Below, piece after piece: positions 4,011 through 50,841 of a stretch of DNA of 64,000 nucleotides (positions are counted from its first letter, which is position 1; every line of letters starts with the position of its first letter). The position numbers were made by a program, and so were the translations under genes. The notes below the pieces were generated by a model. It ran no database searches, was not told where the DNA came from, and saw only the letters and a program-made list of their open reading frames with translations. The DNA is from Patescibacteria group bacterium (GTDB taxonomy: Bacteria; Patescibacteriota; JAHJAL01), in NCBI GenBank assembly GCA_049322675.1, contig JBMORM010000025.1:64520-128519 (forward strand), written 5' to 3'.

Positions 4011-4275
4011 TTCTACGACAATTTTTTTGTTGTAAGATTCATTTTATTAATGTTTTTAAATTGAATCATTTATTCATTGGAAATTTAATGAAAATTGAAA
4101 ATTGGAAATTAAATAAAGTATTTCCCGCTGTACCGTATGCTAGACATTGAGCCTTTGTAAGGCCAAGTGAGTGTCCGCAGGTTTAGATTACGAAGAATCT
4201 AAACAAATATAGGACTCTCAATAAAAAAAGTGTCAGATTCAATGTTGTTAACATTCGAATACAGCAGGAATTTTT

Positions 4276-4923
4276 TTAGGTCAAAAGTGTAAGCGGTAAG
4301 CCGCGCAAAATATAGGCAAATATCATATTAACTGTAATAAATATCCAGGACAAAATTGGAATTTGTCGGTGTAGTAATAATATTATCAATAAAATTATCG
4401 GGCCGGAAGTGATAAATAATTTCATGGTTGACGGTTTTTTTATAAAATACATGATCAATTTTGAACCGTCGAGGGGATAGATAGGGAGTAGATTGAAGGT
4501 AAATAGTAATAAGTTGAGATAATATACGGTTTCTGTAAACTGCAATGCAGCTATCTTTTCAATATTGTAGCCAAGAGCAAGTGCTATAGTGGTGGGAAGG
4601 GAGGTGATTGCTGCCATGATTAGGTTAGCGATTGGTCCGGCAAATGAGGTGATTACATAATCTCGGGAGGGATTTTTGTAGTTGTTGGGGTTTGTCATGA
4701 CTGGTTTTCCCCAGCCAAATCCGGCTAATAGGAGGAAGATAGTTCCAAATGGGTCCAGATGTTTGATAGGATTAATGGTAATGCGGCCTTGAATTTTGGG
4801 AGTTGGATCGCCAAGATAATAGGCTGTCCAGGCATGAGCGTATTCGTGTATGCTTATTGCCATTATCAGAGCAATGATGGCAAAAATTGTTTGAATGGGG
4901 TCGGAAATGATGTTTTGTATCAT
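4276..4923 (-). CDS. Site-2 protease family (M50) zinc metalloprotease
   Basis: The protein has a HEYAHA (HExxH) motif inside a TM helix. It also has the LDG motif (PLDGSKL). It is polytopic. The ORF track extends to 5034; the ATG at 4923 (MIQNIISD...) is more plausible. That start avoids overlap with the divergent rpmB start. Confidence 0.75.
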   Translation of the reverse strand: MIQNIISDPIQTIFAIIALIMAISIHEYAHAWTAYYLGDPTPKIQGRITINPIKHLDPFGTIFLLLAGFGWGKPVMTNPNNYKNPSRDYVITSFAGPIANLIMAAITSLPTTIALALGYNIEKIAALQFTETVYYLNLLLFTFNLLPIYPLDGSKLIMYFIKKPSTMKLFITSGPIILLIILLLHRQIPILSWIFITVNMIFAYILRGLPLTLLT

Positions 4924-5027
4924 ATTATCTGATATTATGAATGGGAAAAGGTTTGTGTTATAATTGTTTAAGCTTTCAGATAAAATTATATCATTATTTT
5001 CTTTTATAAAAAAATGAGGTAAAAAAT

Positions 5028-5213
5028 ATGGCAAAAGTATGTCATTTCTGTCAAAAAAGGTTTTTGGCTGGTAACAATGTTAGTCATTCAAATAGAAAGA
5101 CGAGACGTCGCTTTAATCCAAATTTGCAATTGAAAAAAATTTCTCAAAACAATTCGAATGTGAGAGTATATGTTTGTGCCAAATGTATAAAGTCGCAGCT
5201 CAAGGTTGCATAA
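5028..5213 (+). CDS. rpmB: 50S ribosomal protein L28
   Basis: The protein begins [30 protein letters not shown], the L28 signature. The length is 61 aa. Confidence 0.9.
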
Positions 5214-6171
5214 TATGAAAGAGATAAGGTGGGACAATATTTTTGGGCATGAAGTGCAAAAAAGACAACTGAAAGAATTTTTTTCGGTTGGTATGCCTCA
5301 TTGTCTTTTGTTTGTCGGTCAGGATGGAATAGGTAAAAAAATGATTGCGGAAAGATTGGCTAGGGCGGCTTGGTGTCAGTCAGACAAGGCTCCGTGCGGA
5401 GAATGCGATGGATGCAAGGATTTCTCCAAACGGGGAATGTTTTTGGTGGCGGCTGATTCGGTAAAAATGTTTAATATCGATGAAGTCAGGTTCTTAAAAG
5501 AAAAATTGGAAAAAACTGATTTTTCGGGAAATTTGCGATTGGTGATTGTAGATAATGTTCATTTATTGAGCAAGATTGTCGCAAATGCGTTGTTGAAGAT
5601 TTTGGAGGAACCGGCAAAAAATATTACATTTGTATTGATTGCTTCTAACGCGTATAGTGTTTTGCCAACGATAAAATCCAGATCTTTGATGATGAGATTT
5701 GATAAGTTAAGCAAAGCGGATATAGATAAAATGATTATTGCTTGGGGTGAGACTGATTTAGATAAAAATTGGTCGATGTTGGTTTCTGGTCAACCTGGTT
5801 TGATAAAAAAAATATTTTTTGGTAATACGCAGGAAATAACGGATAAAATGATTTCATTTTGGAAAATGTTGATGGCTGATTACTGGGTAAAAAGTGAGAT
5901 TACCAAGAAAGTTTCGTCATTGGAAAAAGAAAAAATAATGGGGGTGATTTTTTTCTGGGAGATTTGTTTGCGTAGTTATTTGTTGTGGAAACAAGGGATG
6001 GAAAAATTTTGTTGGTGGCATGAGAAAGAGGTATTGGAATGGTATAATAATTGTAATTTGACTTGCGATCAGGTAGTGAGATTGTTGGATCAGTTGGGTG
6101 ATCTAAGAAATATGATTGTAAATAATTACAATAAAAAGATACAAATATTCAATTTTTTATTAGAATCATGA
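5206..6171 (+). CDS. holB: DNA polymerase III delta-prime subunit (clamp-loader AAA+ protein)
   Basis: The protein contains GHEVQKRQL...[12 protein letters not shown] (a Walker A-like box). It also contains the CGECDGC zinc module. It lies upstream of a PSP1/YaaT homologue, as in Firmicutes. The true start may be the M at 5215. Confidence 0.8.
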
Positions 6172-6172
6172 T

Positions 6173-7012
6173 ATGAACGACCAAGATGAAAAAAAACTAG
6201 TAGTTGGTTTGCGTTTTATTTCTGGTTTAAAAATATACCATTACGACCCTAATGGTGGGGATTGGCAGAGGGGTGATTATGTTGTGGTCGAAAATCAGCA
6301 GGGAGAGGAATTGGCCAAAGTTGTATATCCAAAAAAGGAAATTAGTAAGAGCCAATTGGAAGACACTGAATTATTGAAAGTAATTCGTTTGGCTACTGAG
6401 GACGACAAAAAAAATACAATTTTGTTTTTCAAAGAGAAAAAACAATATTTAGAAGAAGCTAGAAATTTGGCGAAGAGTTTAAAATTGTTGATCAAATTTA
6501 TTGATGTTAGCAAGTCGTTGGAAGAATCTGGCAGATTGTTGTTTTTGTTTGCAGCCGATGGACGAGTTGATTTTCGTGATTTATTGACTCGAATGTCAAA
6601 AAAGTTTAATTGTCCGATTCGTTTGTATCAAATTGGACCGCGAGATACAGCTCGAATGATCGGAGGGGTGGGGGTGTGTGGTCAGCAATTGTGTTGCCAT
6701 AGATTTTTAACTAAATTTGAAAGTATTACCATGGATATGGCGAGAGAGCAGGATATGTTGAGTGTAGGAAGCAATAAAATATCTGGTGTATGTGGAAAAC
6801 TTTTGTGTTGTTTGGAATATGAGTTGGAGATATACAAGAAATTGAAAAAAGGAATGCCTCCTTTGTATAGAAATGTGATGACGAATGACAAACAGACCGG
6901 AAAAATTATAGAAAGAAACGTATTGATGCGTACTGTGACGTTGGAGATGGAAAATGGGTCAAAAAAAACATATGCGGTGGAAGATGTAAAATTGATTGAT
7001 GACGTTAAATAA
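6173..7012 (+). CDS. PSP1 C-terminal domain protein (YaaT/RicT-like)
   Basis: The conserved Cys cluster is GVCGQQLCCHRF...GVCGKLLCCLEYE. It sits immediately downstream of holB, as B. subtilis yaaT/ricT does. Confidence 0.8.
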   Translation: MNDQDEKKLVVGLRFISGLKIYHYDPNGGDWQRGDYVVVENQQGEELAKVVYPKKEISKSQLEDTELLKVIRLATEDDKKNTILFFKEKKQYLEEARNLAKSLKLLIKFIDVSKSLEESGRLLFLFAADGRVDFRDLLTRMSKKFNCPIRLYQIGPRDTARMIGGVGVCGQQLCCHRFLTKFESITMDMAREQDMLSVGSNKISGVCGKLLCCLEYELEIYKKLKKGMPPLYRNVMTNDKQTGKIIERNVLMRTVTLEMENGSKKTYAVEDVKLIDDVK

Positions 7013-7056
7013 TTTATTATTGTTTTGAGTGTATAGTTTAAATAATATAAGATGGT

Positions 7057-7683
7057 ATGTACGAGTTGATTGTAATTTTGGTAGTTGCGGTAATTTTGAT
7101 ATATATCATATGGAAGTTTAGTCGGCCGAAATCGGTTGATTATGGTATAGAGGTAGTGGCTGCCAAGGATGCGAAAAAAAATTTGAATTTTGATACGACT
7201 TTGGAAGAAAATTATGAAGAAAGTCAGACAAGTGATCAGACAGGTCCCGTCTCTCGTAAGGCAATTGATAAGTTGACTGGGGAGATGGAACAGGAATGTA
7301 TTGAGAGAATATACAAAAATCCGAAAGATATTAATGCTTATATAAAATTGTCTGTTTATTATATTCAAAGAAAAAAATGGATAGATGCAAAAGAAGTGTT
7401 ATTGGAGGCAGTCAAGATAGAACCTGATAACGATAAGGTGCAAAATAATTTGGGAGTGATATTTTTTCATCAAAAAACTTATAACAATGCTATTCGATCT
7501 TTTGAAAAGGCTATTGCCAAGAACGATAAAGTAGCTCACAGATTTGTGAATATTGCTTTGGCATATTCCGCCATAGGAGAAAATGTACGAGCGGCTGAAT
7601 ATTTTTCCAAGGCGATTACTCTGGATCCGGAGCAGAAGCAATATCAGGAGTTGTTGTCAGAAGTAAAGAGTCTTTTGGTATAG
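7057..7683 (+). CDS. Membrane-anchored tetratricopeptide-repeat protein
   Basis: The N-terminal TM helix is LIVILVVAVILIYIIW. TPR-like repeats follow (AYIKLSVYYIQRKKWIDAKEVLLEAVKIEPDN..., NNLGVIFFHQKTYNNAIRSFEKAI). Confidence 0.6.
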   Translation: MYELIVILVVAVILIYIIWKFSRPKSVDYGIEVVAAKDAKKNLNFDTTLEENYEESQTSDQTGPVSRKAIDKLTGEMEQECIERIYKNPKDINAYIKLSVYYIQRKKWIDAKEVLLEAVKIEPDNDKVQNNLGVIFFHQKTYNNAIRSFEKAIAKNDKVAHRFVNIALAYSAIGENVRAAEYFSKAITLDPEQKQYQELLSEVKSLLV

Positions 7684-7687
7684 GAGA

Positions 7688-7780
7688 GAATTTTAAATTT
7701 CCAATTTTCAATTTTCAAATATGTTTTGAATTTGATATTCGGATATTTTTGGAAATTGAGAATTGGAAATTGAAAATTAT
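7688..7780. repeat. Heptamer-based palindromic intergenic element (GGAAATT/GAAAATT family)
   Basis: The sequence is ...ttccaattttcaattttcaaatatgttttgaatttgatattcggatatttttggaaattgagaattggaaattgaaaatt. It has a left arm, a conserved core and an inverted right arm. Confidence 0.8.
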
Positions 7781-7793
7781 ATTTTGTATGTTT

Positions 7794-7866
7794 GCCGGGA
7801 TAGCTCAGTTGGTAGAGCAACAGTTTTGTAAACTGTGGGTCGCGGGTTCGAATCCTGTTCCCGGCT
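7794..7866 (+). tRNA. tRNA-Thr, anticodon UGU
   Basis: The sequence is GCCGGGAUAGCUCAGUUGGUAGAGCAACAGUUUUGUAAACUGUGGGUCGCGGGUUCGAAUCCUGUUCCCGGCU. The acceptor stem is 7 bp. The D-arm is GCUC/GAGC. The anticodon loop is UUUGUAA. The T-loop is UUCGAAU. Confidence 0.85.
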
Positions 7867-7867
7867 T

Positions 7868-7968
7868 TTCGTCGGAGTCGTTCTTATCGTTTCACCAGAG
7901 CTAAGAATACCTTTTTGGACGGGTAGGTTATGACCTACCCCTACGACCAGAACGCCTCCTCCTCTTTC
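7868..7968. repeat. Conserved palindromic element, copy 2 (same arms as 3924-4010, different interior hairpin GGGUAGGU-UAUG-ACCUACCC)
   Basis: The 25-nt and 17-nt arms are identical to those of copy 1. The element lies immediately 3' of tRNA-Thr(UGU). Confidence 0.6.
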
Positions 7969-8129
7969 CAAAAATTTTCATTTCCTGATTGATCCTCGTT
8001 ACACTCCGGTCAATCGGAGCATTCGCAATTTTTGGAAGTAAGTGGGAAATGGGAAAAAATACTGGATTTTCGGGTACTGGAAATGTTATTTTGGAAATTG
8101 GACATTGAAAATTGGAAATTTAAAAATAA

Positions 8130-8213
8130 GGGTAGGTAGCGAAGTGGTTAAACGCGACAGACTGTAAATCTGTTGGCTTTATGCCTTCGGTGGTTCGAAT
8201 CCACCCCTGCCCA
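8130..8213 (+). tRNA. tRNA-Tyr, anticodon GUA (type II, long variable arm)
   Basis: The acceptor stem is GGGUAGG/CCUGCCC. The anticodon stem is ACAGA/UCUGU with loop CUGUAAA. The long variable arm is UGGCUUUAUGCCUUCGG. The T-arm is GGUGG-UUCGAAU-CCACC. Confidence 0.8.
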
Positions 8214-8217
8214 CTTC

Positions 8218-8322
8218 AAAAAAATTTTCAATTTTCAATTTTTAATTTCCAAACATATTTTGTATGCGATATTCGGATATTTATTGAAAAACGAGAATTG
8301 GAAATTGTATTTTTGTTTGCGC
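8218..8322. repeat. Heptamer-based palindromic intergenic element
   Basis: The core is ccaaacatattttgtatgcgatattcggata. It is flanked by ttttcaattttcaat on one side and gagaattggaaattg on the other. It lies between tRNA-Tyr and tRNA-Thr. Confidence 0.8.
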
Positions 8323-8464: not shown

Positions 8465-8615
8465 GGTTATTTAATTTCCAATTTTCAATTTCCAATTTCC
8501 AAAAAATATTCAATGACCAATTTTCAATAAAGTATTTTTGTTTGGAAATTGAAAATTGGAAATTTTATGGAAATTGGAAACTGGAAATTGAAAATTAATT
8601 ATTAATAAAATTATA
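8465..8615. repeat. Heptamer-based palindromic intergenic element (ccaatgaccaa variant)
   Basis: The sequence is tttccaattttcaatttccaatttccaaaaaatattcaatgaccaattttc...ggaaattgaaaattggaaattttatggaaattggaaactggaaattgaaaatt. Confidence 0.8.
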
Positions 8616-8788
8616 TGGCCAAGGAAAATCGCGAAGTTATAAATATGGAATGTACAGTGTGTGGACGATTGAATTATCAAACCACCAAAAGAATGAAACC
8701 AAAATCCGGTGAGCAGATTACCAGGTTGGAGCTGATAAAGTTCTGTCGACATTGTAAAAAAAGAACACCACATAAGGAAACAAAATAA
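8615..8788 (+). CDS. rpmG: 50S ribosomal protein L33 (C4 zinc-ribbon type)
   Basis: The translation is MAKENREVINMECTVCGRLNYQTTKRMKPKSGEQITRLELIKFCRHCKKRTPHKETK, 57 aa. It is below the 60-aa cutoff of the ORF track. It carries the CxxC...CxxC L33 fold. It lies between the tRNA-Thr and tRNA-Trp genes. Confidence 0.85.
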   Translation: MAKENREVINMECTVCGRLNYQTTKRMKPKSGEQITRLELIKFCRHCKKRTPHKETK

Positions 8789-8789
8789 A

Positions 8790-8917
8790 TTTTCAATTTC
8801 CAATTTTAAATTTACAAACGATATTATGTTGGGATATTGGGATAAGATTTTTTGTGTCCGTACAAAAAATAGATTTCATTGAAAATTGGAAATTGATCAT
8901 TGGAAATTTTTTTGAAT
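8790..8917. repeat. Heptamer-based palindromic intergenic element
   Basis: The sequence is attttcaatttccaattttaaatttacaaacgatattatgttgggatatt...ttgaaaattggaaattgatcattggaaattt. Confidence 0.75.
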
Positions 8918-8990: not shown

Positions 8991-9192
8991 TTTTAAACAA
9001 AATACCAATTTATAATTTTTCCCTCACGGGACTTAAGCTGCTGCTGGCAATTTTCAAATATATTTTGTTGGGATTCTTGGGAGATTGTTAATTTATATAA
9101 GGATAGAACATTGTTCTGTCTTTTTTAACGTTTGGAAACTGGAAATTTTTTGGAAACTGGAAATTGGAAATTGGAAATTGTATGATATTGGT

Positions 9193-10203: not shown

Positions 10204-10336
10204 AAAAGATAAGTTGTAAGTTGCAAGTAACAAGCAGCAAGTGGAGGGAAAATACAATTCAATAAAATAACTTGAAACTTGGTACTTGATACTTAATCCT
10301 TGTAGTGGATATAATTTAAATTAATAAATATAAAAT

Positions 10337-24483: not shown

Positions 24484-24511
24484 TATTGTAGGGGCGGTTC
24501 ATGAACCGCCC
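24484..24511 (+). terminator. Perfect palindromic GC-rich hairpin terminator (GTAGGGGCGGTTCATGAACCGCCCCTAC)
   Basis: It is a 28-nt perfect palindrome directly after the giant gene stop codon. It belongs to the GGGGCGG hairpin family. Confidence 0.7.
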
Positions 24512-24526
24512 CTACATTTATGTACG

Positions 24527-24561
24527 TTGACAAATTTGGAGGTCATATGTTATACTGTATA
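24527..24561 (+). promoter_or_regulatory. Sigma70-like promoter for the pil operon (TTGACA, 17 bp spacer, TTATAC/TATACT)
   Basis: The sequence is TTGACAaatttggaggtcatatgTTATACtgta. It lies about 30 bp upstream of pilM, right after the terminator. Confidence 0.5.
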
Positions 24562-25579: not shown

Positions 25580-25676
25580 ATAAAATTTCCAATTTTCAGT
25601 TTCCGGTTTCCAATAGATATTTTGTTAGGATATTTGGGAAAAATTTAAATAAAATAAAAAATAATAATACATAAAA

Positions 25677-26342: not shown

Positions 26343-26450
26343 TACATTAAAATTTCCAGTTTCCAATTTCCAGTTTCCAAAAAATTTCCAATTTTCAAAC
26401 AAATTAAATAATATTTCGTTTGGAAATTGAGAATTGAAAATTGGAAATTA
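26343..26450. repeat. Heptamer-based palindromic intergenic element
   Basis: The sequence is aaaatttccagtttccaatttccagtttccaaaaaatttccaattttcaaac...tttggaaattgagaattgaaaattggaaatt. It lies upstream of pilO. Confidence 0.8.
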
Positions 26451-27107: not shown

Positions 27108-27240
27108 AATTTCCAATTTCCAATTTCCAAACATATTTTGTATGCGATATTTGGATAAAAAGACAGATTAATTTAGAAATTGGTCATTGGAAATTTATTG
27201 GAAATTGAAAATTGAAAATTGGGAATTAAAAATTTAAGAA
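27108..27240. repeat. Heptamer-based palindromic intergenic element (full-length archetype)
   Basis: The sequence is aatttccaatttccaatttccaaacatattttgtatgcgatatttggataaaaagacagattaatttagaaattggtcattggaaatttattggaaattgaaaattgaaaattgggaatt. Confidence 0.85.
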
Positions 27241-27519: not shown

Positions 27520-27655
27520 TACAATTTTCAATTCTCAATTCTCAATTTTCAATTTTCAAATATATTTTGTATGTGATATTTGGATAAAGAGACAAAACAT
27601 TTGGAAATTGAATATTTTTTGGAAATTGGAAACTGAAAATTGGAAATTAAAAAAA
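27520..27655. repeat. Heptamer-based palindromic intergenic element
   Basis: The left arm is caattttcaattctcaattctcaattttcaattttcaaatatattttgtatgtgatatttggataaa. The right arm is ggaaattggaaactgaaaattggaaatt. It ends 8 nt before the pilB ATG. Confidence 0.85.
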
Positions 27656-27656
27656 T

Positions 27657-29627
27657 ATGGACAACATTTTATATAAAAATAGCTTACTGAATTTTCTGGT
27701 GATTGAGGGTAAATTGGATAAAGATCAGGCGGAGAGAATCTTGGATGAAGTAGAAAAAAGTAATCGCAGTATTGTTGATGCGATTTTGGCGAAAGCTTTG
27801 ATCGATGAAATATCTTTGCGGGACTTGTTGGCCAAGTATGCCAATTTGAAAGTTGGGGATGTGCCATATGGTTTATCTCTGAAAACCTATCAGTTTTTGA
27901 ATTTTTCCACTTCATATCGATATCGTATAGTAAGTTTTGATTTGGCTGAAGATGCGGTCAAAATTGCTTGCGACAATCCTTTGAATTTGGAAATGCAAGA
28001 AGTGATAGATTTTTTGAGTCGGGCCAGAAAGATAAAAATTGAATATTATGTGGTGACAAGATCAGAATTGATCCAGCTTTTGGCCAATTATCAAAAAATG
28101 ATGTTGGAAAGGGGATTAATAGATAAGTCGGAAATAGATATAATAAAGCAGAAATATGGTGAATTGGGTACAGATATTATTGAAGCGCCGGTTTTGAAAA
28201 ATGAAGTAAAAGAAGAGGTGATAGAACAAAAGAAGTCGGATGAAGATGAGAAAAAAATTGAGGATGCCGATTTGTTGGGTTTGGAGATAGAAGCAGAGGC
28301 GGAGGCTAGAGTTCAAGAGGTAGAAAAGGGTATGATGAGTGATGATGGCTATTCGGATGAACAGAAATCATGGTTAAAATTATTGCAGGACAAGGTCGAA
28401 TCGATCGATCAATTGAAAAAAATTATTAACTCTCGTGATATTCCTCGGATGGTGGCTAGTTTCGTTCATTATGCCATCATGATGGGAGCTTCGGATATTC
28501 ATATTGAACCGATGACTTCATCAATCAGGGTTCGTTATCGAGTGGATGGAGTTTTGCAGGAAATATTGGAATTGGATAAATCTCTTTTGCCGGCTTTGAT
28601 CTCGCGTATTAAAATTTTGGCTCTACTAAAGATAGATGAACATCGTATTCCTCAGGATGGTCAGTTTAGGGTTACTTTTGAAGGTCGGATGGTTGATTTG
28701 CGTATTTCTTCGTTGCCGACGGTTTATGGTGAAAAAGTGGTGATACGTATTTTGGATGTTTCATCGGGACGATTGACTTTGGATCAATTGGGTTTGCAAG
28801 GGATAAATAAGGATAAAGTATCAAAGAATATTTTGCGTAGCAACGGGATGATTTTGTCCACCGGTCCGACTGGAAGCGGAAAATCGACTTCATTGTTTTC
28901 GATATTGGGGATGGTGTCTTTACCCGGAGTCAATGTGGTTACTTTGGAAGATCCGGTTGAATATCACATTTCCGGAGTCAATCAAGTTCAGATTAGACCG
29001 GATATTGGATTTACTTTTGCTACTGGTTTGAGAAGTATATTGCGTCAAGATCCAAATGTGGTGATGGTGGGTGAAATCCGTGATTCAGAGACAGCCGAGT
29101 TGGCTGTCCATGCTTCTTTGACAGGTCACTTAGTATTGTCAACTTTGCATACCAACGATGCTCCTTCGGCGATTCCAAGATTGATTGATATGGGAATTGA
29201 ACCGTTTTTAATTAGTTCTTCTTTGGTGTTGGTGATGGCGCAAAGATTGGTACGAAAGGTATGTGATCATTGTCGATCCGAAATCGAGGTCCCGGCGGAG
29301 AAGGCCAATGAGATAATTGAATATTTGCATAATGTACCGAAAGAACATATAGAAAAATTGGGTCTGGATTTGGCTAAACCAAAATTTTATCGCGGGTTGG
29401 GTTGTACATATTGTCACAATAGTGGTTATAAAGGTAGGATGGGTGTTTTTGAAGTTTTGGAGATGACTGAGACATTACATGATCTGACAATTAAAAAATC
29501 ATCAGGTGTAGATATTTTTAATCAAGCGGTCAATGAAGGAATGATCACAATGAGACAGGACGCTTTTATGAAAGCATTGCAAGGGATTACGACGTTGGAT
29601 GAGGTTTATAGGGTAACGACAAAGTAA
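27657..29627 (+). CDS. pilB: Type IV pilus assembly ATPase PilB (GspE family)
   Basis: The Walker A box is GPTGSGKST. The tetracysteine motif is CDHC...CTYC. An N-terminal GSPII_E-N-like domain is present. The length is 656 aa. Confidence 0.9.
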   Translation: MDNILYKNSLLNFLVIEGKLDKDQAERILDEVEKSNRSIVDAILAKALIDEISLRDLLAKYANLKVGDVPYGLSLKTYQFLNFSTSYRYRIVSFDLAEDAVKIACDNPLNLEMQEVIDFLSRARKIKIEYYVVTRSELIQLLANYQKMMLERGLIDKSEIDIIKQKYGELGTDIIEAPVLKNEVKEEVIEQKKSDEDEKKIEDADLLGLEIEAEAEARVQEVEKGMMSDDGYSDEQKSWLKLLQDKVESIDQLKKIINSRDIPRMVASFVHYAIMMGASDIHIEPMTSSIRVRYRVDGVLQEILELDKSLLPALISRIKILALLKIDEHRIPQDGQFRVTFEGRMVDLRISSLPTVYGEKVVIRILDVSSGRLTLDQLGLQGINKDKVSKNILRSNGMILSTGPTGSGKSTSLFSILGMVSLPGVNVVTLEDPVEYHISGVNQVQIRPDIGFTFATGLRSILRQDPNVVMVGEIRDSETAELAVHASLTGHLVLSTLHTNDAPSAIPRLIDMGIEPFLISSSLVLVMAQRLVRKVCDHCRSEIEVPAEKANEIIEYLHNVPKEHIEKLGLDLAKPKFYRGLGCTYCHNSGYKGRMGVFEVLEMTETLHDLTIKKSSGVDIFNQAVNEGMITMRQDAFMKALQGITTLDEVYRVTTK

Positions 29628-29629
29628 AT

Positions 29630-29760
29630 TTCCAATTCTCAATTTCCAATTTCCAAACATATTTTGCATACGATATTCGGATAAAAAAATGATAATTTGG
29701 AAATTGATCATTGGAAATTTATTGGAAATTGAGAATTGAAAATTGGAAATTAATAATAAA
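29630..29760. repeat. Heptamer-based palindromic intergenic element
   Basis: It is near-identical to the 27108 copy (core ccaaacatattttgcatacgatattcggataaaaaaa; right arm ttggaaattgatcattggaaatttattggaaattgagaattgaaaattggaaatt). It lies immediately upstream of pilT. Confidence 0.85.
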
Positions 29761-30853: not shown

Positions 30854-30962
30854 GGAAAAATTTCCAATTTTCAATTTCCAGTTTTCAAACATATTTTGAA
30901 TTCGATATTTGGAAATTGGACATTGAAAATTTATTGGAAATTGAGAATTGGAAATTATAATG
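30853..30962. repeat. Heptamer-based palindromic intergenic element
   Basis: The sequence is tttccaattttcaatttccagttttcaaacatattttgaattcgatatttggaaattggacattgaaaatttattggaaattgagaattggaaatt. It lies upstream of pilC. Confidence 0.85.
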
Positions 30963-32202: not shown

Positions 32203-32242
32203 AACAGGAAATTGGAAATTATTAACATTCGTTTATAACTCT

Positions 32243-32756: not shown

Positions 32757-32842
32757 TTAATTAGCATTTCACGGAGATTCAGGATTTTTCCTGGATCTTC
32801 GGAAAATACTAATTAATATATTTTAATACAATAAGTGATGTC

Positions 32843-32895
32843 ATTCTGGAGCCGGAAGCGTACTCGCATTCCGACATCCAGAATCCAGGATTTTA
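32843..32895. repeat. Hairpin repeat (GTCATTCTGGAGCCGGAAGCGTACTCGCATTCCGACATCCAGAATCCAGGA), copy 1
   Basis: It recurs at about 33837-33889 and 37231-37285. It folds into an imperfect hairpin of about 50 nt. Confidence 0.55.
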
Positions 32896-33048
32896 ATTTC
32901 CAATTTTCAATTCTCAATTTTCAACAAATTCTCAATTTCCAATTTCCAAACAAATACAGGCAACAATTATTATGAATTTGAGTTCGTTTGAAAATTGGTC
33001 ATTGGACATTTTTTGGAAATTGGAAACTGGAAATTGAAAATTGAATAT
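32893..33048. repeat. Heptamer-based palindromic intergenic element (ccaaacaaata...gcaacaattatta subfamily)
   Basis: It shares the core ccaaacaaatacaggcaacaattattatgaatttgagttcgtttgaaaattggtcattgg with the 37270-37440 copy. It lies upstream of pilD. Confidence 0.8.
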
Positions 33049-33806: not shown

Positions 33807-33836
33807 ATTAATTTTTAATTTCTAAACAATAATAGA

Positions 33837-33961
33837 TGTCATTCTGGAGCCGAAAGCGTAATCGCGTTTCGACATCCAGAATCCAGAAAGAAAAAATTTA
33901 ATAAATTAAGGAAATGGATCCTGGATATTGGAGCGGATTACCTTCCAGTTCCAGGATGACA
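33837..33961. repeat. MITE-like element with terminal inverted repeats TGTCATTCTGGA...TCCAGGATGACA (hairpin repeat copy 2 plus the GGATCCTGGATATTGGAGCGGATTACCTTCCAGTTCCAGGATGACA half-element)
   Basis: The two ends are reverse complements of each other. The right half recurs at 35650-35700. The left half recurs at 32843-32895 and 37231-37285. Confidence 0.5.
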
Positions 33962-34003
33962 CAGATTAGTATGTTTAAAAATTAAAAATTAAAAATTAAA
34001 AAT

Positions 34004-35623: not shown

Positions 35624-35649
35624 AAAAATGGATAGTCGAAAATTTGGAA

Positions 35650-35700
35650 AGTGGATCCTGGATATTTGAACGGATTACCTTCCTAGTTCTAAGGATGACA
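35650..35700. repeat. Half-element repeat GGATCCTGGATATTTGAACGGATTACCTTCCTAGTTCTAAGGATGACAG (copy of 33916-33961)
   Basis: It is about 85% identical to the right half of the 33837-33961 element. Confidence 0.5.
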
Positions 35701-35845
35701 GAAAGGAAATTTCCAATTTTCAATTCTCAATTTCCAAACATATTTTGTAATCGATATTAGTAAAAAAAATAATTGAAAATTGTATCATTGGAAATTGGAA
35801 ATTTAATGAAAATTGAAAATTGGAAATTGAAAATTAAAGAATAAA
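35700..35845. repeat. Heptamer-based palindromic intergenic element
   Basis: The left arm and core read tttccaattttcaattctcaatttccaaacatattttgtaatcgatatt. The right arm is ggaaattggaaatttaatgaaaattgaaaattggaaattgaaaatt. Confidence 0.8.
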
Positions 35846-36424: not shown

Positions 36425-36585
36425 GAAATTTTCAATTTTCAATTCTCAATTTCCAAACGATATTTTGTTAGGATATTAGAAAGAAAAAAATATCAAAAAA
36501 AAGTTGAAAATTGTATTTGTTTGAAAATTGGTCATTGGAAATTTATTGGAAATTGGAAACTGGAAATTGGAAATTTAAAAAAAGT
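36425..36585. repeat. Heptamer-based palindromic intergenic element
   Basis: The left arm and core read ttttcaattttcaattctcaatttccaaacgatattttgttaggatatt. The right arm is ttgaaaattggtcattggaaatttattggaaattggaaactggaaattggaaattt. Confidence 0.8.
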
Positions 36586-37226: not shown

Positions 37227-37230
37227 AACA

Positions 37231-37285
37231 TTTATGTCATTCTGGAAAGAAAGTGTAATCACGCTTCTTATCCAGAATCCAGCAC
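37231..37285. repeat. Hairpin repeat copy 3 (TATGTCATTCTGGAAAGAAAGTGTAATCACGCTTCTTATCCAGAATCCAGCA)
   Basis: It has the same outer stem (GTCATTCTGGA / TCCAGAAT) as the copies at 32843 and 33837. Confidence 0.5.
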
Positions 37286-37440
37286 CTTAATTTCCAATTT
37301 CCAGTTTCCAATTTCCAGTAAATGCTCAATTTCCAATTTCCAAACAAATATTAAGCAACAATTATTATTAATTTGAATTCGTTTGAAAATTGGTCATTGG
37401 AAATTTATTGGAAACTGGAAATTGTGAATTGGAAATTTCT
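37270..37440. repeat. Heptamer-based palindromic intergenic element (same subfamily as 32893)
   Basis: The left arm is ttaatttccaatttccagtttccaatttccagtaaatgctcaatttccaatttccaaacaaatattaagcaacaattattattaatttgaattcgtttgaaaattggtcattggaaatttattggaaactggaaattg. Confidence 0.8.
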
Positions 37441-37445: not shown

Positions 37446-37790
37446 TCATTTCTTATTGAGTGAGTTAACAATTTTTTGAAAGATCATATTCAGTTGCTGA
37501 CTTTCTTGATAGAGTTTTTGAATTTCTACTCTATTATCTAGTTCACTTGAATACAGCATTTTGAGCCAATATTTTGTTTCATTCGTTTCTTTTTTGCAAA
37601 TAAATATTTTGTTTTTAAAATCTCGTTTTGAACTTGAATCATTGGCTTCATGATAATTTGCTCCGATACTTGTTCCTGAACGTATGACTTGATTGATTGT
37701 GTTTTTATTGATTATGTTGATTTTTATAGATTTGCAAAGACTAATTATTTTTATTCCAAAATCTGATGTTCGTTTTTCCAAATTGTACAT
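37446..37790 (-). CDS. Four-helix-bundle protein (TIGR02436 family, the type found in 23S rRNA intervening sequences)
   Basis: The protein carries the family signature SGTSIGANYHEANDSSSKRDFKNKIFICKKETNETKYWLKML. It is the only minus-strand gene inside the pilus island. Confidence 0.7.
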   Translation of the reverse strand: MYNLEKRTSDFGIKIISLCKSIKINIINKNTINQVIRSGTSIGANYHEANDSSSKRDFKNKIFICKKETNETKYWLKMLYSSELDNRVEIQKLYQESQQLNMIFQKIVNSLNKK

Positions 37791-37942
37791 GGATTGTTGT
37801 TAAAAAGTATTTATAATTACTTATAACAAATCTCGATTAACTAGAAATTAATAAAAATTTAAAATTAGATTATCGTTTGGAAATTGGTCATTGGAAATTT
37901 ATTGGAAATTGGAAACTGAAAATTGGAAATTAATAAACAACT

Positions 37943-38947
37943 ATGTTTACAAAACTAAAAAAAATATTAATAAATGACGATCGCGGATCAGCGATCATCC
38001 TCGCTTTAATAATAATAGCTGCCTTGGCTACCACCGGTATCGGCGCGGCCCGTTTGACCAAATCCAATATCTCGCAAACCACCAGTTTTGAAGACGGTCT
38101 CAAGGCTTACTATGCGGCGGAAGCGGGGGTGGAGGCGGCGCTGCTGGAATGGCGGTTTGATCATGATGTGGAGTTTTGGAACGCGGACAAAGCGCGGACT
38201 TGTTACAACGCCGTCAAATCCAGCCCGGATACTTTGGATGATCCTAGTTGTGAGTTGGCCAAGATGACAAGGATTGTTAATCTGCAGGGGAAAGCGGGGG
38301 AGAACCCGGTGGATATTACGAACAATAAGTTTGATGCTGAGGGGAATGTTACCAATGAGGATTACAAGGGTCCGACCAATCAACCTTGGTATGAGTTGAA
38401 GATTTATTATCGAGATCCGAAGAGACCAATAATTGGCAATCAAGATAATCCCAAGGATTTGACAAAAAATCCTGTTTACATTGATAAAGATCAAACTTAT
38501 GAGGTTAAATTTCCAGTAAGTGATAATGTTAGAAGTTTATATTTGCAATGGGCAAATAAAAATAATCCTGATGTTACAAAATTAATGTGGCATCCCATAG
38601 CTGAAAAGAATGGACAGGATACAATAATTGATATGGCGGCAAATAGATATTATAGCCAAGACTTTGAGTATAATTTTCCTGTAATAGTTGATAGTAATTA
38701 TTCTTCGGGCTTAAAAAGTCTGAGAGTTAAATGTTTATCTGACAATCAGGGAGTATATTTATCTTTATATGCTGAAGACGAGAATTTTGAGGTTGTCCAT
38801 TTACCTACTGATGAAGTGAATATTGAAGTGGTTGGACATTATAATAATACGGAAAGAAAAATTACTTATAAATTATCCAGACAGGCAGGTACCATTATGG
38901 ATATTTTTGATTTTGGAGTATTTTCTCAGAGTAGTTTAAGAAAATAA
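37943..38947 (+). CDS. PilX-like minor pilin (334 aa)
   Basis: The N-terminus DDRGSAIILALIIIAALATTGIGAARL is a PilX-type hydrophobic segment. Confidence 0.55.
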   Translation: MFTKLKKILINDDRGSAIILALIIIAALATTGIGAARLTKSNISQTTSFEDGLKAYYAAEAGVEAALLEWRFDHDVEFWNADKARTCYNAVKSSPDTLDDPSCELAKMTRIVNLQGKAGENPVDITNNKFDAEGNVTNEDYKGPTNQPWYELKIYYRDPKRPIIGNQDNPKDLTKNPVYIDKDQTYEVKFPVSDNVRSLYLQWANKNNPDVTKLMWHPIAEKNGQDTIIDMAANRYYSQDFEYNFPVIVDSNYSSGLKSLRVKCLSDNQGVYLSLYAEDENFEVVHLPTDEVNIEVVGHYNNTERKITYKLSRQAGTIMDIFDFGVFSQSSLRK

Positions 38948-40538: not shown

Positions 40539-40834
40539 AAAACATCATCCTTTCATTCGAAAAATTCTGCCAACCAATCCAGGGGCTGGCTGTTCTGGGT
40601 CACATGAAACACCGCTGTGTAACTTTTTTCTGTTTCCTCGAAGACTTTCGGAAATCCGTCTGTTGAGGAAAAGAAAAAAATAATTGTTAGAAAAATCATC
40701 AAGAAGACTTTTTTCAACTTTTCTCACATCCCTTCTTTTTGTTTATTTAAAAAATTTTAATTTAATACAAAAATTTTGGCTTCTTGTCTTTTTTTAATTT
40801 TTGACAAAGAAACCGAGAAATAGACAGAATATTA

Positions 40835-40975
40835 ATTTCCAGTTTCCAATTTCCAAGTTCCAAAGAATTTCCAATGATCAATTTCTAAACCTTTTTGATA
40901 TATCCGAATATTTTAACGATATATTGTTTGAAAATTGAGAATTGAAAATTGGAAATTGCATTTCTGTCTGTTTCC
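40835..40975. repeat. Heptamer-based palindromic intergenic element
   Basis: The left arm is aatttccagtttccaatttccaagttccaaagaatttccaatgatcaatttc. The right arm is tttgaaaattgagaattgaaaattggaaattg. Confidence 0.75.
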
Positions 40976-46421: not shown

Positions 46422-46557
46422 TGGATAGTTTGTAAAAAGGTCGGGGTATTTATCCTGTCTTTTTTTGTTTTTTTATGTTTTATTTCGCGTGAAATGAGTT
46501 GACAATGTGAGAATATGATTATTATATTAAATCAAGTATATAAATTAATGTAAAATC

Positions 46558-47940: not shown

Positions 47941-48057
47941 AGATCTGTCAGGTAACTAGTATAATCGCATATTTTATCAAGGTATTATTTGGACGATTGA
48001 TTTGATAGAATAAAGTTACAGGTTTGGAAAAAAATTTATTTATGTATAGATATTTTT

Positions 48058-49194: not shown

Positions 49195-49250
49195 AAAGTT
49201 GTAAGATCATAAAGTGATAGTTAAAAATTAAAAATGTTTGGAGGTGGACA

Positions 49251-49568
49251 ATGGTAAAGGTTTTAGAATTGGAGACAGTAGATGATTTTTCCAAAAATAT
49301 TGCGGGGACTTTGACGATAGTTGATTTTTTTGCGGTCTGGTGTGGTCCTTGTCAAATGATGAAACCGATTTTTGAAAAAGTGGCCGAAGAAATGGAAGGT
49401 ATAAATTTTATATCGGTTGATGTTGATAAATTTTCTGAGTTGGCGGCCAAATATGATGTTATGAGTATTCCAACTTTTGTTATTTTCAAGGATGGACAAG
49501 CGATTACGGTAAAAAATGGCGCCATGAGCGAGTCGGATTTTAGAAATTGGATAGAGAAGAACAAATAA
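49251..49568 (+). CDS. trxA: Thioredoxin
   Basis: The active site is WCGPC. The length is 105 aa. Confidence 0.9.
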   Translation: MVKVLELETVDDFSKNIAGTLTIVDFFAVWCGPCQMMKPIFEKVAEEMEGINFISVDVDKFSELAAKYDVMSIPTFVIFKDGQAITVKNGAMSESDFRNWIEKNK

Positions 49569-49574
49569 AAAAAC

Positions 49575-49720
49575 AGTTTCCAATTTTCAATTCTCTATTT
49601 TTCCCTCACGGGATCGAACTGCTGCTGACAAACATGTTTTGTTGAAATATACGGAGATAATTTATAATATTTGGAAATTTATTGGAAATTGATCATTGGA
49701 AATTGAAAATTTTTATGAAA
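49575..49720. repeat. Heptamer-based palindromic intergenic element carrying the ttttccctcacggga...ctgctgctg motif
   Basis: The left arm reads tttccaattttcaattctctatttttccctcacgggatcgaactgctgctgacaaacatgttttgttgaaatatacgg. The right arm is ttggaaatttattggaaattgatcattggaaattgaaaatt. It lies between trxA and tpiA. Confidence 0.75.
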
Positions 49721-50461
49721 AATTATTTATTTGTTGCCAATTGGAAAATGAATACCACGGTTGCTGAAGCTGAAGAGTTGATAGATGGTGTGGTTGATGG
49801 TTGGGAAAAAGAAGAAGATGTTGTTGTACTGTGTCCACCTGCTTGTTTTTTGGAACAGTGCAGCTTGGTTTTAGATTCCAAGAAGGTTAAAAATATATTT
49901 TTGGGTGCGCAAAATGTTTCTTGGGAACAAAAAGGAGCGATTACTGGCGATATTTCCGTGACAATGGTTAAGGATTGGGTGGATTATGCGATTGTTGGTC
50001 ATTCGGAAAGGCGTCAGTATTTTTCGGAGACTGCTGTTTTGATCAATAAAAAGATAAAATTATGTTTTGAGTGCGATATTAATCCGGTCTTGTGCGTGGG
50101 TGAAAAGAGATTGTTGTCAGATGATATTACTGAGATTGGTCGGGATTTGTCGGAATGTTTGGCGGGTCTATCTATAGGCGAAGCAAAGAAAATATCTATT
50201 GCTTATGAGCCGGTGTGGGCGATTGGAACAGGCGAACCGGCCAATCCAAATTATGTCAATCGCGTTATTCGTGATTTGCGAGCTTGGGTCAAAGATGAAT
50301 TTGGGTTTGAAGTGGCAGAATCTATTAAATTTTTGTATGGCGGTAGCGTGGATGAAAAAAACTCGGTTGATTATTTGAAGCAAGAACATGTTGATGGTTT
50401 ATTGATTGGTGGAGCCAGTTTAAAGAAGGATAAGTTTTTAAAAATAGTAAATTTTTCTTAA
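49715..50461 (+). CDS. tpiA: Triosephosphate isomerase
   Basis: The N-terminus is MKNYLFVANWKMN. Further motifs are AYEPVWAIGTG and GGASLK. The ORF track start at 49682 reads through the heptamer repeat. Confidence 0.9.
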   Translation: MKNYLFVANWKMNTTVAEAEELIDGVVDGWEKEEDVVVLCPPACFLEQCSLVLDSKKVKNIFLGAQNVSWEQKGAITGDISVTMVKDWVDYAIVGHSERRQYFSETAVLINKKIKLCFECDINPVLCVGEKRLLSDDITEIGRDLSECLAGLSIGEAKKISIAYEPVWAIGTGEPANPNYVNRVIRDLRAWVKDEFGFEVAESIKFLYGGSVDEKNSVDYLKQEHVDGLLIGGASLKKDKFLKIVNFS

Positions 50462-50524
50462 AAAATAATTGCTTGCTGCTTGATATAATATTTGGTTTTT
50501 GTTAATATTTCAGATAGTTTGTTA

Positions 50525-50640
50525 AAATTTCCAATTTAAAAATTATCAATTTCCAGAGAATTTCCAATTTCTTGTTTCTAAAAGTTTTCTAATATTCCAA
50601 CGGAATATGTTTGAAAATTGAGAATTGAAAATTGGAAATT
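50525..50640. repeat. Heptamer-based palindromic intergenic element
   Basis: The left arm is tttccaatttaaaaattatcaatttccagagaatttccaatttcttgtttc. The right arm is tttgaaaattgagaattgaaaattggaaattg. It lies directly upstream of tRNA-Glu. Confidence 0.75.
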
Positions 50641-50654
50641 GCGTTTGTATCTAT

Positions 50655-50726
50655 GGCTCCATCGTCTAACGGTTAGGACGTCAGATTTTCAATCTGAAAA
50701 TCGGGGTTCGATTCCCCGTGGGGCTA
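50655..50726 (+). tRNA. tRNA-Glu, anticodon UUC
   Basis: The sequence is GGCUCCAUCGUCUAACGGUUAGGACGUCAGAUUUUCAAUCUGAAAAUCGGGGUUCGAUUCCCCGUGGGGCUA. The anticodon loop is UUUUCAA. The acceptor stem has two G-U pairs. Confidence 0.75.
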
Positions 50727-50841
50727 CTTTTTAAATACAATTTTTAATTTTTTAATTTTCAATTTCCAATTGACGGAAGTTGAATTTTTTTGAACCTTTA
50801 TACTTGATAAAATTACTGATTTATGTCATTGTATAAATTGA

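Follow-up and report, generated by a model that had tools for sequence, protein, structure and literature searches.

The heptad palindromes that occupy the short intergenic gaps of the window, the 64-kb stretch of DNA from an ultra-small bacterium of the Patescibacteria (CPR) analysed here, are most plausibly dispersed foldback repeats that have inserted into these gaps and are transcribed there, with the arms forming an AU-rich helix and RNA punctuation as the likeliest role. We would give this account about an even chance. The elements resemble the MITE, REPIN and RPE families.

Matches to GRAAATTGRAAATT (GRAAATT dimers, at most one mismatch) number 112 in the window, against 2.0 ± 1.3 in shuffled sequences, and the arrays that they form are intergenic in every case. 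The arrays form 24 elements (Table 1), about one per 2.7 kb, which account for 3.7% of all bases in the window and for 35% of those that are intergenic. The earlier note had described a heptamer-based palindromic element at about 23 loci, and arrays are indeed found at all 23 positions that it listed; an additional site is the two-unit remnant at 32207. The core sequence given there recurs exactly at 8251 and 27129, and the right-arm sequence at 29697–29751. A looser core pattern, AAAYATATTTTG-N5-GATATT, gives 16 matches in the window where 1.1 are expected, and the eight clear copies all lie on the plus strand. The period of 7 was confirmed by TRF, and an inverted-repeat finder recovered the arm pairs, which in all families measure 24–74 nt with 76–96% complementarity.

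Arm length is quantised. A full arm has 53 nt and comprises an outer block of four heptads, a 4-nt linker (TATT, TTTT or TAAT), an inner block of three heptads in the order unit-GRTCATT-unit, and a terminal GTTT/AAAC. Twenty-three outer blocks have four heptads; a further four were scored as five because the flank is A-rich. The heptad arms are not free-running microsatellites. The elements are non-coding, 90–150 bp in size, with their two arms, fixed 53-nt modules, inverted around a loop. A conserved core had been placed between the arms, but it lies off centre, next to one arm, where it takes the place of that arm's inner 25 nt. Judged by eye, the core is forward in 12 copies and inverted in two (40873 and 50590). 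Loop subfamilies are common to unlinked copies, core A being present at no fewer than eight loci, loop B at 32948 and 37342.

Table 1. Heptad elements of the window and features of their context.
Feature	Position	Strand	Remarks
Element, AstE-like gene/fpg (both −)	2827–2911	−	right arm 2858 to 2827, 13 nt before fpg ATG; one-unit left remnant 2904–2910
Solo arm, AATTTYC type on − strand	4079–4110	−	7 nt downstream of 6S RNA gene (4118–4273, −)
Full element, TPR gene/tRNA-Thr	7689–7778	+	loop subfamily A; right arm ends 15 nt before tRNA
Solo four-heptad right arm	8093–8120	+	9 nt before tRNA-Tyr
Element, tRNA-Tyr/tRNA-Thr	8223–8306	+	exact core A at 8251–8273
Full element, tRNA-Thr/rpmG	8473–8596	+	two 53-nt arms, 18-nt loop
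Element, rpmG/tRNA-Trp	8788–8908	+	left arm from stop codon; right arm ends 10 nt before tRNA
Element, tRNA-Trp/hypothetical gene	9049–9179	+	one-unit left arm, core A variant, long right arm
Palindromic tandem-repeat element of another unit (TAAGTTG ... AACTTGA)	10210–10294	+	only one of its kind in window
Context: GC-rich terminator hairpin and TTGACA-N18-TATACT promoter before pilM	24487–24556	+	element-free gap
Element, pilM/pilN	25584–25640	+	left arm and core A variant, without right arm
Element, pilN/pilO	26351–26449	+	short loop (AAACAAATTAAATAATATTTCGTTT)
Element, pilO/83-aa gene	27108–27227	+	exact core A; absent from orthologous gap of L122
Element, 83-aa gene/pilB	27523–27648	+	arms and leader 95% identical to related strain
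Element, pilB/pilT	29627–29751	+	starts at stop codon, ends 13 nt before ATG; 10-mer-unit palindrome there in L122 and L123
Element, pilT/pilC	30859–30956	+	
Two-unit remnant after pilC stop codon	32207–32220	+	followed by pilin's own upstream region with Shine-Dalgarno sequence
Full 53+53-nt element, pilin/pilD	32895–33042	+	loop subfamily B
Element, minor pilin-like 539-aa gene/189-aa gene	35706–35835	+	core A
Element between two minor-pilin-like genes	36427–36575	+	
Full 53+53-nt element	37289–37437	+	loop subfamily B; convergent genes, 212-aa (+) and 23S-rRNA-IVP (−)
Solo full 53-nt right arm	37879–37931	+	11 nt before ATG at 37943
Element with inverted core	40834–40957	+	divergent gap
Element, thioredoxin/tpiA	49575–49711	+	extra module TTTTTCCCTCACGGGA..CTGCTGCTG
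Context: conserved sigma-70-type promoter TTGATA-N17-TAATAT upstream of tRNA-Glu element	50481–50509	+	hexamers read from alignment
Element with inverted core, promoter/tRNA-Glu	50526–50640	+	site empty in L216, different palindrome in L217
Two-unit left-arm remnant after tRNA-Glu	50754–50767	+	intact element there in L217

The elements are found between co-directional genes (pilMNO-BTC-D and the minor pilins) and around tRNAs, and their landing sites are very short gaps, from stop to start inside operon-like clusters or in tRNA leaders and trailers; one element (37289–37437) lies between convergent genes. Where nothing else is inserted, the left arm begins −1 to 12 nt after the stop codon. 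The right arm had been reported to end typically 8–30 nt before the start; the distance measures 3–18 nt in all but three of 18 cases, namely pilC (43 nt), pilO (70 nt) and h83 (32 nt). Five tRNA genes have an arm upstream, and the 6S RNA gene has one downstream. Gaps of the window that contain a canonical GC hairpin terminator and a TTGACA-N18-TATACT promoter hold no element, and at tRNA-Glu the element follows the conserved promoter. Because of this position downstream of an operon or tRNA promoter, the elements are probably transcribed within polycistronic RNA or pre-tRNA.

The elements behave as dispersed insertions. Unlinked copies have the same loops, and orthologous sites are empty or hold a palindrome of another unit, in keeping with the MITE-like repeat family that the earlier note had entertained. 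Two relatives whose PilB is 95% and 82% identical carry palindromes of 10-mer units in gaps that hold heptad ones in the window; at no fewer than four gaps heptad elements have cleanly replaced 10-mer ones since the split from L122, which fits awkwardly with simple random insertion. The pilO/x gap is filled in the window and in L123, at insertion points about 10 nt apart, and empty in L122, and the x/pilB gap holds three different unit families in three relatives. In the tRNA-Glu leader, which is empty and 14 nt long in L216, the window has a heptad element and L217 a palindrome of 8-mer units. A right arm upstream of trx is present in L217 and absent in the window. No element occurs between pilM, N, O, x and B of L124, where the gaps are 10–40 nt. 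The structured arm is also present in other Patescibacteria (L020, L030, L031 and L061) and, in frame inside genes, in L023 and L098. The boundaries of filled and empty sites coincide with the outer ends of the arms; target-site duplications are ambiguous, since AATT or AAA is indistinguishable from the arm ends. No gene for a transposase, a RAYT-type protein or a reverse transcriptase was found among the approximately 58 window proteins scanned.

The earlier note had proposed conservation in related genomes and folding of the palindrome as checks. Conservation is evident: arms and leader are identical at 78 of 82 positions, against 44 of 64 neighbouring third codon positions (p = 2.5e-5), and for the right arm and leader 52 of 54 positions are identical between strains. 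Between L122 and L123, orthologous elements of the 10-mer type share 0.86–0.96 identity, against 0.45 at four-fold sites, and the order of variant units is also kept in orthologous copies. As to folding, the predicted minimum free energies of individual elements lie between −18 and −53 kcal/mol. Plus-strand RNA folds only about 10% better than minus-strand RNA (−516 versus −466 kcal/mol), which does not demonstrate selection on the RNA. Shuffling the unit order of the right arm did not weaken pairing (mean z = +0.35); there is therefore no register-specific compensation between the arms.

It is possible, though unlikely, that the right arm supplies a promoter together with a short leader, as a cassette carried outward by a foldback element whose mirror end is the left arm. 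The TT of the linker and the first heptad would form a −35-like TTGGAA or TTGAAA, the last heptad, 18 nt on, a −10-like GAAATT, while an UP-like AT tract would be supplied by the inner 25 nt; a start 6–8 nt past the arm would yield leaderless or near-leaderless mRNAs and tRNA leaders of 2–9 nt. The fixed outer block of four heptads suits such a design, as does an arm of 53 nt, the span of a promoter from −59 to −7. Arm ends lie 3–18 nt from ATGs and tRNA 5′ ends alike, and genes behind arms start with ATG and lack a Shine-Dalgarno sequence. The recognisable canonical promoters of the lineage mostly have an 18-nt spacer, for example before pilM in the window; by eye this spacer also precedes h460 in the window and pilM in L123 and L124, the tRNA-Glu promoter having 17. 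Strong conservation of the right arm and the fixed start distance would also be expected of a promoter or a leader module. Some TTGRRA-N16–18 matches of the promoter scan do fall in right arms (29729, 30934, 33034 and 35813), but the agreement of the proposed hexamers is weak, with GAAATT correct at three of six positions, and promoter-like matches are not enriched in the window (70 versus 57 ± 7.5). Moreover, the tRNA-Glu element stands behind a canonical promoter that is conserved, and L216 dispenses with the element; the element at 37289–37437 points towards the 3′ end of a gene that converges on it. If the mirror left arms, which often also have four heptads, acted likewise, they would drive antisense transcription of the upstream gene. 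In L122 and L123, inspection of the 10-mer palindromes that occupy these gaps showed no comparable −35/−10 pair. With element-free promoter gaps and no enrichment of matches, a promoter function, as proposed earlier, is unsupported as the general role.

A purely selfish nature of these foldback repeats, without any function for the cell, is distinctly unlikely. Their apparent conservation would then reflect recent spread and gene conversion among hundreds of copies, and they would persist because a palindrome looped out in RNA is harmless in short gaps. Filled/empty polymorphism and repeated insertion at identical sites would be expected of such repeats, as would decay, seen in degenerate copies at pilM/N and N/O in L123 and in the window remnants at 32207 and 50754. 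The number of arm units varies between close strains, and a compensatory pattern between arms is absent. The in-frame copies of other Patescibacteria, which lie in variable protein loops, resemble the RPEs of Rickettsia. However, orthologous copies are far closer than neutral sites in both comparisons and retain the order of their variant units, whereas concerted evolution alone should leave a family consensus that drifts at the neutral rate. The 12:2 bias in loop orientation, and the occupation of about a third of intergenic DNA in a streamlined genome, also argue against a purely selfish repeat.

An improbable proposal is that the arms act as double-stranded DNA. A sequence-specific protein, for instance a nucleoid-associated one, would bind them as phased arrays of 7-bp sites in which one step measures 11 bp; or the competence machinery of the type IV pilus would recognise them as a lineage-specific signal for DNA uptake or kin recognition, in a "dialect" peculiar to each lineage. 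This would account for constraint on sequence rather than on structure only, for the quantised 4+3 arrays with their 7+4 step, and for the dominance of one unit family per genome and of another in the equivalent gaps of a sister species. The density of the elements is also in line with it; their inverted pairs in gaps and the in-frame copies in variable protein loops recall DUS and USS. Genes for DprA, for a YbaB/EbfC protein and for a complete type IV pilus set are present in the window. Known uptake signals, however, are frequent in coding DNA, whereas arrays in the window are strictly intergenic, and the 27 single heptad units that fall within genes are no more than a modest excess over anagram controls (mean 10, 95th percentile 23.5). 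The GRAAATT-type array is frequent in unrelated phyla and in viral contigs and is therefore not lineage-specific by itself; heptad and 10-mer units differ in the sequence itself, which goes beyond a shift of dialect; and the binding protein is hypothetical.

It is hardly credible that the GGAAAUU units are Shine-Dalgarno surrogates or S1/Csp-binding translation enhancers, a ribosome-binding role put forward in the earlier note and unsupported as a general one: although arms end 3–18 nt before start codons without a Shine-Dalgarno sequence, and a role of translation-enhancer or surrogate type has been proposed for the TAACTGA repeats of Beggiatoaceae (PMC4679880), the identical arm type precedes tRNA genes, the units of relatives before these genes lack GGA, L217 retains GGAGG between the arm and the trx start, and the mirror arm has no such reading.

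If the elements are instead inserted, co-transcribed foldback repeats, their arms would fold in the transcript into an AU-rich helix of 28–53 bp, which could span the gap or, where a gene is short, enclose that gene. Such a helix would loop the insert out and hold the stop and next start codons 15–25 nt apart at its base, and operons may tolerate the insert because the two codons stay close. The constraint on the sequence of the arms implies a sequence-specific reader. The helix may serve as RNA punctuation, the least certain step, acting either as a site of double-strand-specific cleavage or as a stabilising hairpin that separates cistrons or tRNAs.

The chromosome segment examined here has a GC content of 35% and carries a type IV pilus cluster, several tRNAs, a 6S RNA and housekeeping genes; its PilB and TpiA homologues place it in the Patescibacteria (CPR). 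The abundance of the palindromic heptad element, as claimed in the earlier note, is borne out. Allowing one mismatch at most, there are 112 matches to the motif GRAAATTGRAAATT where 2.0 would be expected, and arrays are found at all 23 positions listed there as well as at one more. All arrays in the window are intergenic, none lying inside a gene, and the elements account for 3.7% of all bases in the window and for 35% of the intergenic ones. They constitute a dispersed, insertion-type foldback repeat family with arms of fixed architecture. The family lies inside transcription units, is under sequence constraint, and is replaced by related families in sister lineages.

The full arm is 53 nt long and is structured unlike a free-running microsatellite. 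From the outside inward it consists of four heptads (GGAAATT, GAAAATT, GAGAATT or GGAAACT), a 4-nt linker (TATT, TTTT or TAAT), three further heptads, the middle one being GATCATT or GGTCATT, and an innermost GTTT, read as AAAC on the left arm. The period of 7 is confirmed, and copy number is quantised at 4+3, with no free variation: 23 contiguous heptad blocks contain exactly four units, and the score of five given to another four is due only to an A-rich flank that fits the pattern. In some elements, both arms are full and the loop is short. Most copies have a left arm confined to the outer four heptads, and a conserved motif, core A (AAACATATTTTGTATGCGATATTYGGATAAA), replaces the inner part, so that the core marks the shortened side. 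Judged by eye, 12 copies have core A in forward orientation and two have it inverted. GC skew is positive over the whole window (1-64000). For the most part it is unusually strong, with values of +0.2 to +0.47 in 2-kb intervals, and it drops to +0.03 at 40-44 kb. Nearly all genes are on the plus strand, and the orientation bias of the loop thus cannot be assigned to transcription or to replication from the window alone. Two elements contain a module, TTTTTCCCTCACGGGA(N5-6)CTGCTGCTG, between left arm and core.

Among the 24 loci in 64 kb, the core A loop is found at no fewer than eight unlinked loci and a second type, loop B, at two. The unique loops that unlinked copies have in common show that the elements arose by copying from one another, not by local expansion. 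Many dispersed copies with common internal sequence, inverted arms of 28-53 nt that are 76-96% complementary, and element sizes of 84-149 bp are all features of a MITE.

Elements fill the co-directional gaps of the series pilM-N-O-x-B-T-C (x being an 83-aa gene), pilin-pilD-minor pilins, tRNA-Thr-Tyr-Thr-rpmG-tRNA-Trp, and trx-tpiA-tRNA-Glu. Where the gap holds no other insert, the left arm begins -1 to 12 nt past the stop codon. In 15 of 18 cases, 3-18 nt separate the end of the right arm from the following ATG or tRNA 5' end. No element occurs in gaps where a GC-rich terminator and a TTGACA-N18-TATACT promoter can be recognised, as before pilM. Reading through the arms makes false ORF extensions, as the earlier note had pointed out. 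One element lies between convergent genes, because its minus-strand neighbour is a real 23S-rRNA-IVP gene. Small genes of this family, PF05635 (23S-rRNA-intervening-sequence protein), sit at differing places in the same clusters among relatives, often adjoining palindromes, and from these positions the small gene looks mobile. The 6S RNA gene (Rfam, 59 bits) begins 2 nt past the M50 protease gene, which leaves no room for a promoter of its own, and a heptad arm follows 7 nt after it.

Syntenic pil loci of four relatives were recovered by PilB identity (L122, 95%; L123, 82%; L124, 66%; L125, 65%). Between the window and L122, coding sequences are 88-94% identical, except for a divergent pilin gene (77%), and four-fold sites are 0.69 identical; for L123, the outgroup, four-fold sites are 0.45-0.48 identical. 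The orthologous gaps in these relatives also hold tandem-repeat palindromes, built from other units: ~10-nt units (nnAAACnCTT / AAGnGTTTnn) in L122 and most of L123, CTTGATM heptamers in L124, and GCAATAT heptamers with CAAACTTTA 9-mers in L125. At the swapped gaps, homology between the window and L122 resumes a few bases past the stop codon and ~13 nt before the ATG. The gaps between pilM, N, O, x and B in L124 are element-free and measure 10-40 nt.

Orthologous sites that are filled in one genome and empty in another, as looked for under the MITE-like interpretation, are seen at three places. The pilO-x gap is empty in L122 and filled in both the window and L123, at insertion points ~10 nt apart, and the region upstream of trx is filled only in L217, a locus from another genome. 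The clearest insertion case is tRNA-Glu. Its TTGATA-N17-TAATAT promoter is kept in three genomes; L216, from the same genome as L123, has only 14 nt from the -10 box to the tRNA, the window leader holds a 115-nt heptad element, and the L217 leader holds a palindrome of ~8-nt units. The conserved upstream promoter and the empty leader in L216 indicate that the element is a dispensable insertion into a transcribed leader. At the junctions, AATT or AAA is indistinguishable from the arm ends, and a possible target-site duplication, GTTTGTWA, is seen in one case only, at tRNA-Glu. Domain scans of the ~58 window proteins revealed no transposase domain.

Two comparisons speak against the view that these are old insertions decaying neutrally. 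Before pilB, the arms and leader match those of a closely related strain (L129, JGI sample 3300029288) at 78 of 82 positions, as compared with 44 of 64 third codon positions in the flanking genes (Fisher p = 2.5e-5). Orthologous 10-mer elements at four gaps in L122 and L123 are 0.86-0.96 identical, against 0.45 at four-fold sites, and exactly those four gaps carry heptad elements in the window.

Each element is predicted to fold at -18 to -53 kcal/mol. As RNA it would form an AU-rich helix of 28-53 bp that loops the insert out and keeps the stop codon near the following start codon at its base. By analogy with known hairpins, the helix may act as a cleavage or stabilising signal between cistrons and tRNAs: RNase III cuts the folded ends of Correia elements, and REP hairpins stabilise operon transcripts in E. 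coli. In a strand-asymmetry test based on G-U pairs, the transcribed strand gave a total of -516 kcal/mol and its complement -466 kcal/mol, a difference of only ~10% and with mixed signs. Shuffling of heptad order in the right arm left arm-to-arm pairing unweakened (mean z = +0.35) and so gave no sign of compensation between the arms, in a test of low power because the same units pair well in whatever order. At gathering and E-value thresholds, Rfam matches in the window were to tRNAs and a 6S RNA only, with none for the elements; these resembled plant and animal miRNA hairpins below threshold only, which was rejected as chance. The elements are not intrinsic (Rho-independent) terminators, since their stems are AU-rich and followed by A-rich sequence, without the GC-rich stem and U tract; the matches of a terminator scan fall elsewhere.

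The main alternative to a signal in RNA is that the right arm contains a weak outward-facing promoter, TTGGAA-N18-GAAATT. Such a putative promoter would fit the quantised arm length, the distance of the arms from gene starts, and the 18-nt spacer of most recognisable canonical promoters in the lineage. It clashes, however, with the tRNA-Glu case, where a canonical promoter lies upstream of the element, with the copy between convergent genes, and with the mirror-image left arms and the 10-mer family. The match in the outer block is weak, and promoter-like matches in the element-rich 17.5 kb are not enriched (70 versus 57 +/- 7.5). Core A was rejected as a general promoter: GATATT with an upstream TG is found in only ~5 of 13 copies, and ATTTCC occupies the -35 position. 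Of the interpretations offered in the earlier note, that of a MITE-like repeat family stands and that of a promoter is not supported as a general role, while the proposed action of the arms as Shine-Dalgarno or ribosome-binding surrogates is contradicted by arms that precede tRNAs and by the units of relatives, which have no GGA.

There is a small chance that the elements form a 'punctuation code' used throughout the genome and recognised by a cognate sequence-specific factor, with one spelling per lineage: GGAAATT heptads in the window, AAGnGTTTnn 10-mers in the sister with 95% PilB identity, and other units further out. The factor might be an RNA-processing, RNA-binding, DNA-binding or DNA-uptake protein, and upon its change the spelling would be replaced as a set at the same gaps. 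Such a code would account for arms that are more conserved than synonymous sites, for the 4+3 architecture common to distant Patescibacteria, and for the clean swaps of heptads for 10-mers.

It seems quite improbable that the reader acts at the level of DNA, the elements being targets of a nucleoid protein or uptake signals with lineage dialects. The DUS of Neisseria and the USS of Pasteurellaceae occur at high density and as inverted pairs in gaps, have lineage 'dialects' that change between clades at orthologous positions, and include in-frame copies in variable protein regions. The heptad elements resemble them in density, gap pairs, in-frame copies, dialects and orthologous changes. Uptake sequences, however, are single 9-12-mers frequent in coding DNA, whereas the arms here are 53-nt composites that are strictly intergenic in the window. 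Arrays are intergenic only, and single genic units are modestly above anagram controls, unlike an uptake motif, which is short and strongly over-represented on both strands of the whole genome, coding DNA included. Further readings were rejected: core A is not an IHF site (WATCAANNNNTTR is absent on inspection), the distances of 3-18 nt fit no single offset of a leaderless-mRNA geometry, and telomerase-like repeat addition and PhoB-box-like spacing found no support.

The bare heptad trimer is found, among the matches listed (one genome per species), in Bacteroidota, Patescibacteria, Acidobacteriota, Planctomycetota and others, as well as in 82 viral contigs. By itself the array is thus a common simple repeat without diagnostic value; heptamers are the commonest long simple repeats in published surveys (PMC4679880). 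The structured 3+4 arm, among the matches listed, is seen only in Patescibacteria, namely Moranbacteria (L020), Saccharibacteria (L030, 52% GC), Parcubacteria (L061), L031 and L017, and at no viral locus. A metagenome scan for arm plus core gave four true relatives and three chance matches, and no description of such elements in Patescibacteria was found in the literature searched. Other Patescibacteria have in-frame heptad arrays, usually of exactly four units, inside real genes, including by eye PolA, DprA and RluA. In-frame arms read NFQFPIS (NFQFPISNFQ) or WKLEIGN (WKLEIGNWKL), and the AATTTYC strand is stop-free in every frame. Several arrays of 3-10 units each occur on IMG/VR contigs L148, L153/L204, L176 and L186 (GC 45-59%), from which the structured 3+4 arm is absent. 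High-GC (56-68%) Thermoanaerobaculia/Acidobacteria and Bacteroidota MAGs contain convergent pairs, (GAAAATT)3-5 / (AATTTTC)3-4, around a GC-rich hairpin; these occupy the gap directly past the stop codon, resembling an extended bidirectional terminator, and between copies the arms are kept and the centre is not.

The heptad elements belong with the MITE/REPIN/RPE kind of repeat, among which their quantised heptad arms, constraint, and family swaps at fixed gaps are unusual. Like the REPIN and REP-BIME elements of Pseudomonas and E. coli, they are abundant, extragenic, hairpin-forming inverted doublets of ~100-150 bp, often intra-operon and probably co-transcribed, which form lineage-specific families persisting under constraint and have a central motif between the arms (compare the IHF site of BIME-1). 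In contrast to REP palindromes of 20-35 nt with 5' GTAG, the arms here are 53-nt tandem heptads, and in the window they have neither an internal palindrome nor GTAG. Pfam scans of the window proteins revealed no RAYT (Y1 HUH) gene, and sister species spell the families differently at the same gaps. Rickettsia palindromic elements (RPE) are likewise ~100-150 bp palindromes of reduced-genome, host-dependent bacteria, found in intergenic DNA, beside RNA genes and in frame in protein genes (the last, for the heptad arms, in related Patescibacteria), but RPE arms lack short tandem units, and no window copy is inside a gene. The Correia/NEMIS elements of Neisseria are ~100-150 bp MITEs with inverted ends, co-transcribed with their neighbours; they differ in their 26-bp unique TIRs, TA duplication and IHF site, none of which was found here. 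Correia ends can also bear outward promoters, so that these elements exemplify the same two functional readings, cleavage and promoter, that are weighed here.

Tandem heptanucleotides directly before SD-less starts are known from the TAACTGA repeats of Beggiatoaceae (PMC4679880), cyanobacterial STRR, and long simple sequence repeats (Mrazek 2007, as cited in PMC4679880), and such heptamer direct repeats are also patchily distributed over phyla. They are one-sided and of variable length, whereas the heptad elements are quantised inverted pairs with a common loop that also flank tRNAs. Terminal inverted repeats of short tandem repeats around a central loop are found in the foldback (FB) and Galileo elements of Drosophila, but these are eukaryotic, kilobase-scale and partly autonomous.

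The window contains other repeats. A second, unrelated MITE-like family (TGTCATTCTGGA ... TCCAGGATGACA), ~130 nt when complete, adjoins several heptad elements, and a family related to it is abundant in L124. A repeat of ~90-120 nt (CGTCGGAGTCGTTCTTATCGTTTC ... AGAACGCCTCCTCCTCT) adjoins tRNA-Pro and tRNA-Thr; it has no Rfam match, and may be a structured RNA or a mobile remnant linked to tRNAs, as its complementary ends suggest. A perfect direct array, (TTAAAAA)x4.3, directly before the start of a 539-aa pilin-like gene is a one-sided heptamer array of another unit.

Coordinates of the elements and of other features discussed in the text.
Feature	Sequence	Positions
Additional heptad array	window	32207
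Two full arms and short loop	window	8473-8596; 32895-33042; 37289-37437
Element between convergent genes	window	37289-37437
Inverted core A	window	40873; 50590
Loop B	window	32948; 37342
Module between left arm and core	window	9010-9048; 49596-49630
Terminator and promoter gap before pilM	window	24487-24556
Terminator scan matches	window	24487; 38969
6S RNA gene	window	4118-4273 (-)
PF05635 gene	window	37446-37790 (-)
PF05635 genes	L125	6507-6848; 15417-15770
PF05635 gene	L217	430-795
In-frame arm, glycosyltransferase linker	L023	3852-3905
In-frame arm, LeuRS variable loops	L098	2179-2775
In-frame arrays	L016, L044, L072, L075 and others	
Convergent pair	L008	7137-7270
Convergent pair	L042	106-191
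Convergent pair	L085	5742-5826
Convergent pairs	L101	499-575; 1932-2004
Convergent pair	L117	2448-2526
Second MITE-like family	window	32825-32895; 33828-33965; 35640-35708; 37228-37290
Repeat adjoining tRNA-Pro and tRNA-Thr	window	3918-4010; 7862-7985
(TTAAAAA)x4.3 array	window	33975-34004

Gene regulation has hardly been studied in Patescibacteria, whose genomes are streamlined, at ~1 Mb. In the window, one fixed-architecture palindrome makes up a third of the intergenic DNA; it is set between cistrons and around tRNAs, shows stronger conservation than synonymous sites, and is spelled differently by sister species at the same places. In practice, short-read assemblies break at the repeats: L001 (Logan SRR32167788), the one public contig found to encode the exact PilB, is 2033 nt long and has heptad arms at both ends. 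If the elements are selfish DNA, they would be an unusually clear instance of recurrent insertion into targets of 14-40 nt, and a bacterial foldback element with tandem-repeat ends. If instead the helix serves as a signal for processing or insulation, it would provide a simple, testable account of operon punctuation in these bacteria, and a handle on the protein that reads it.
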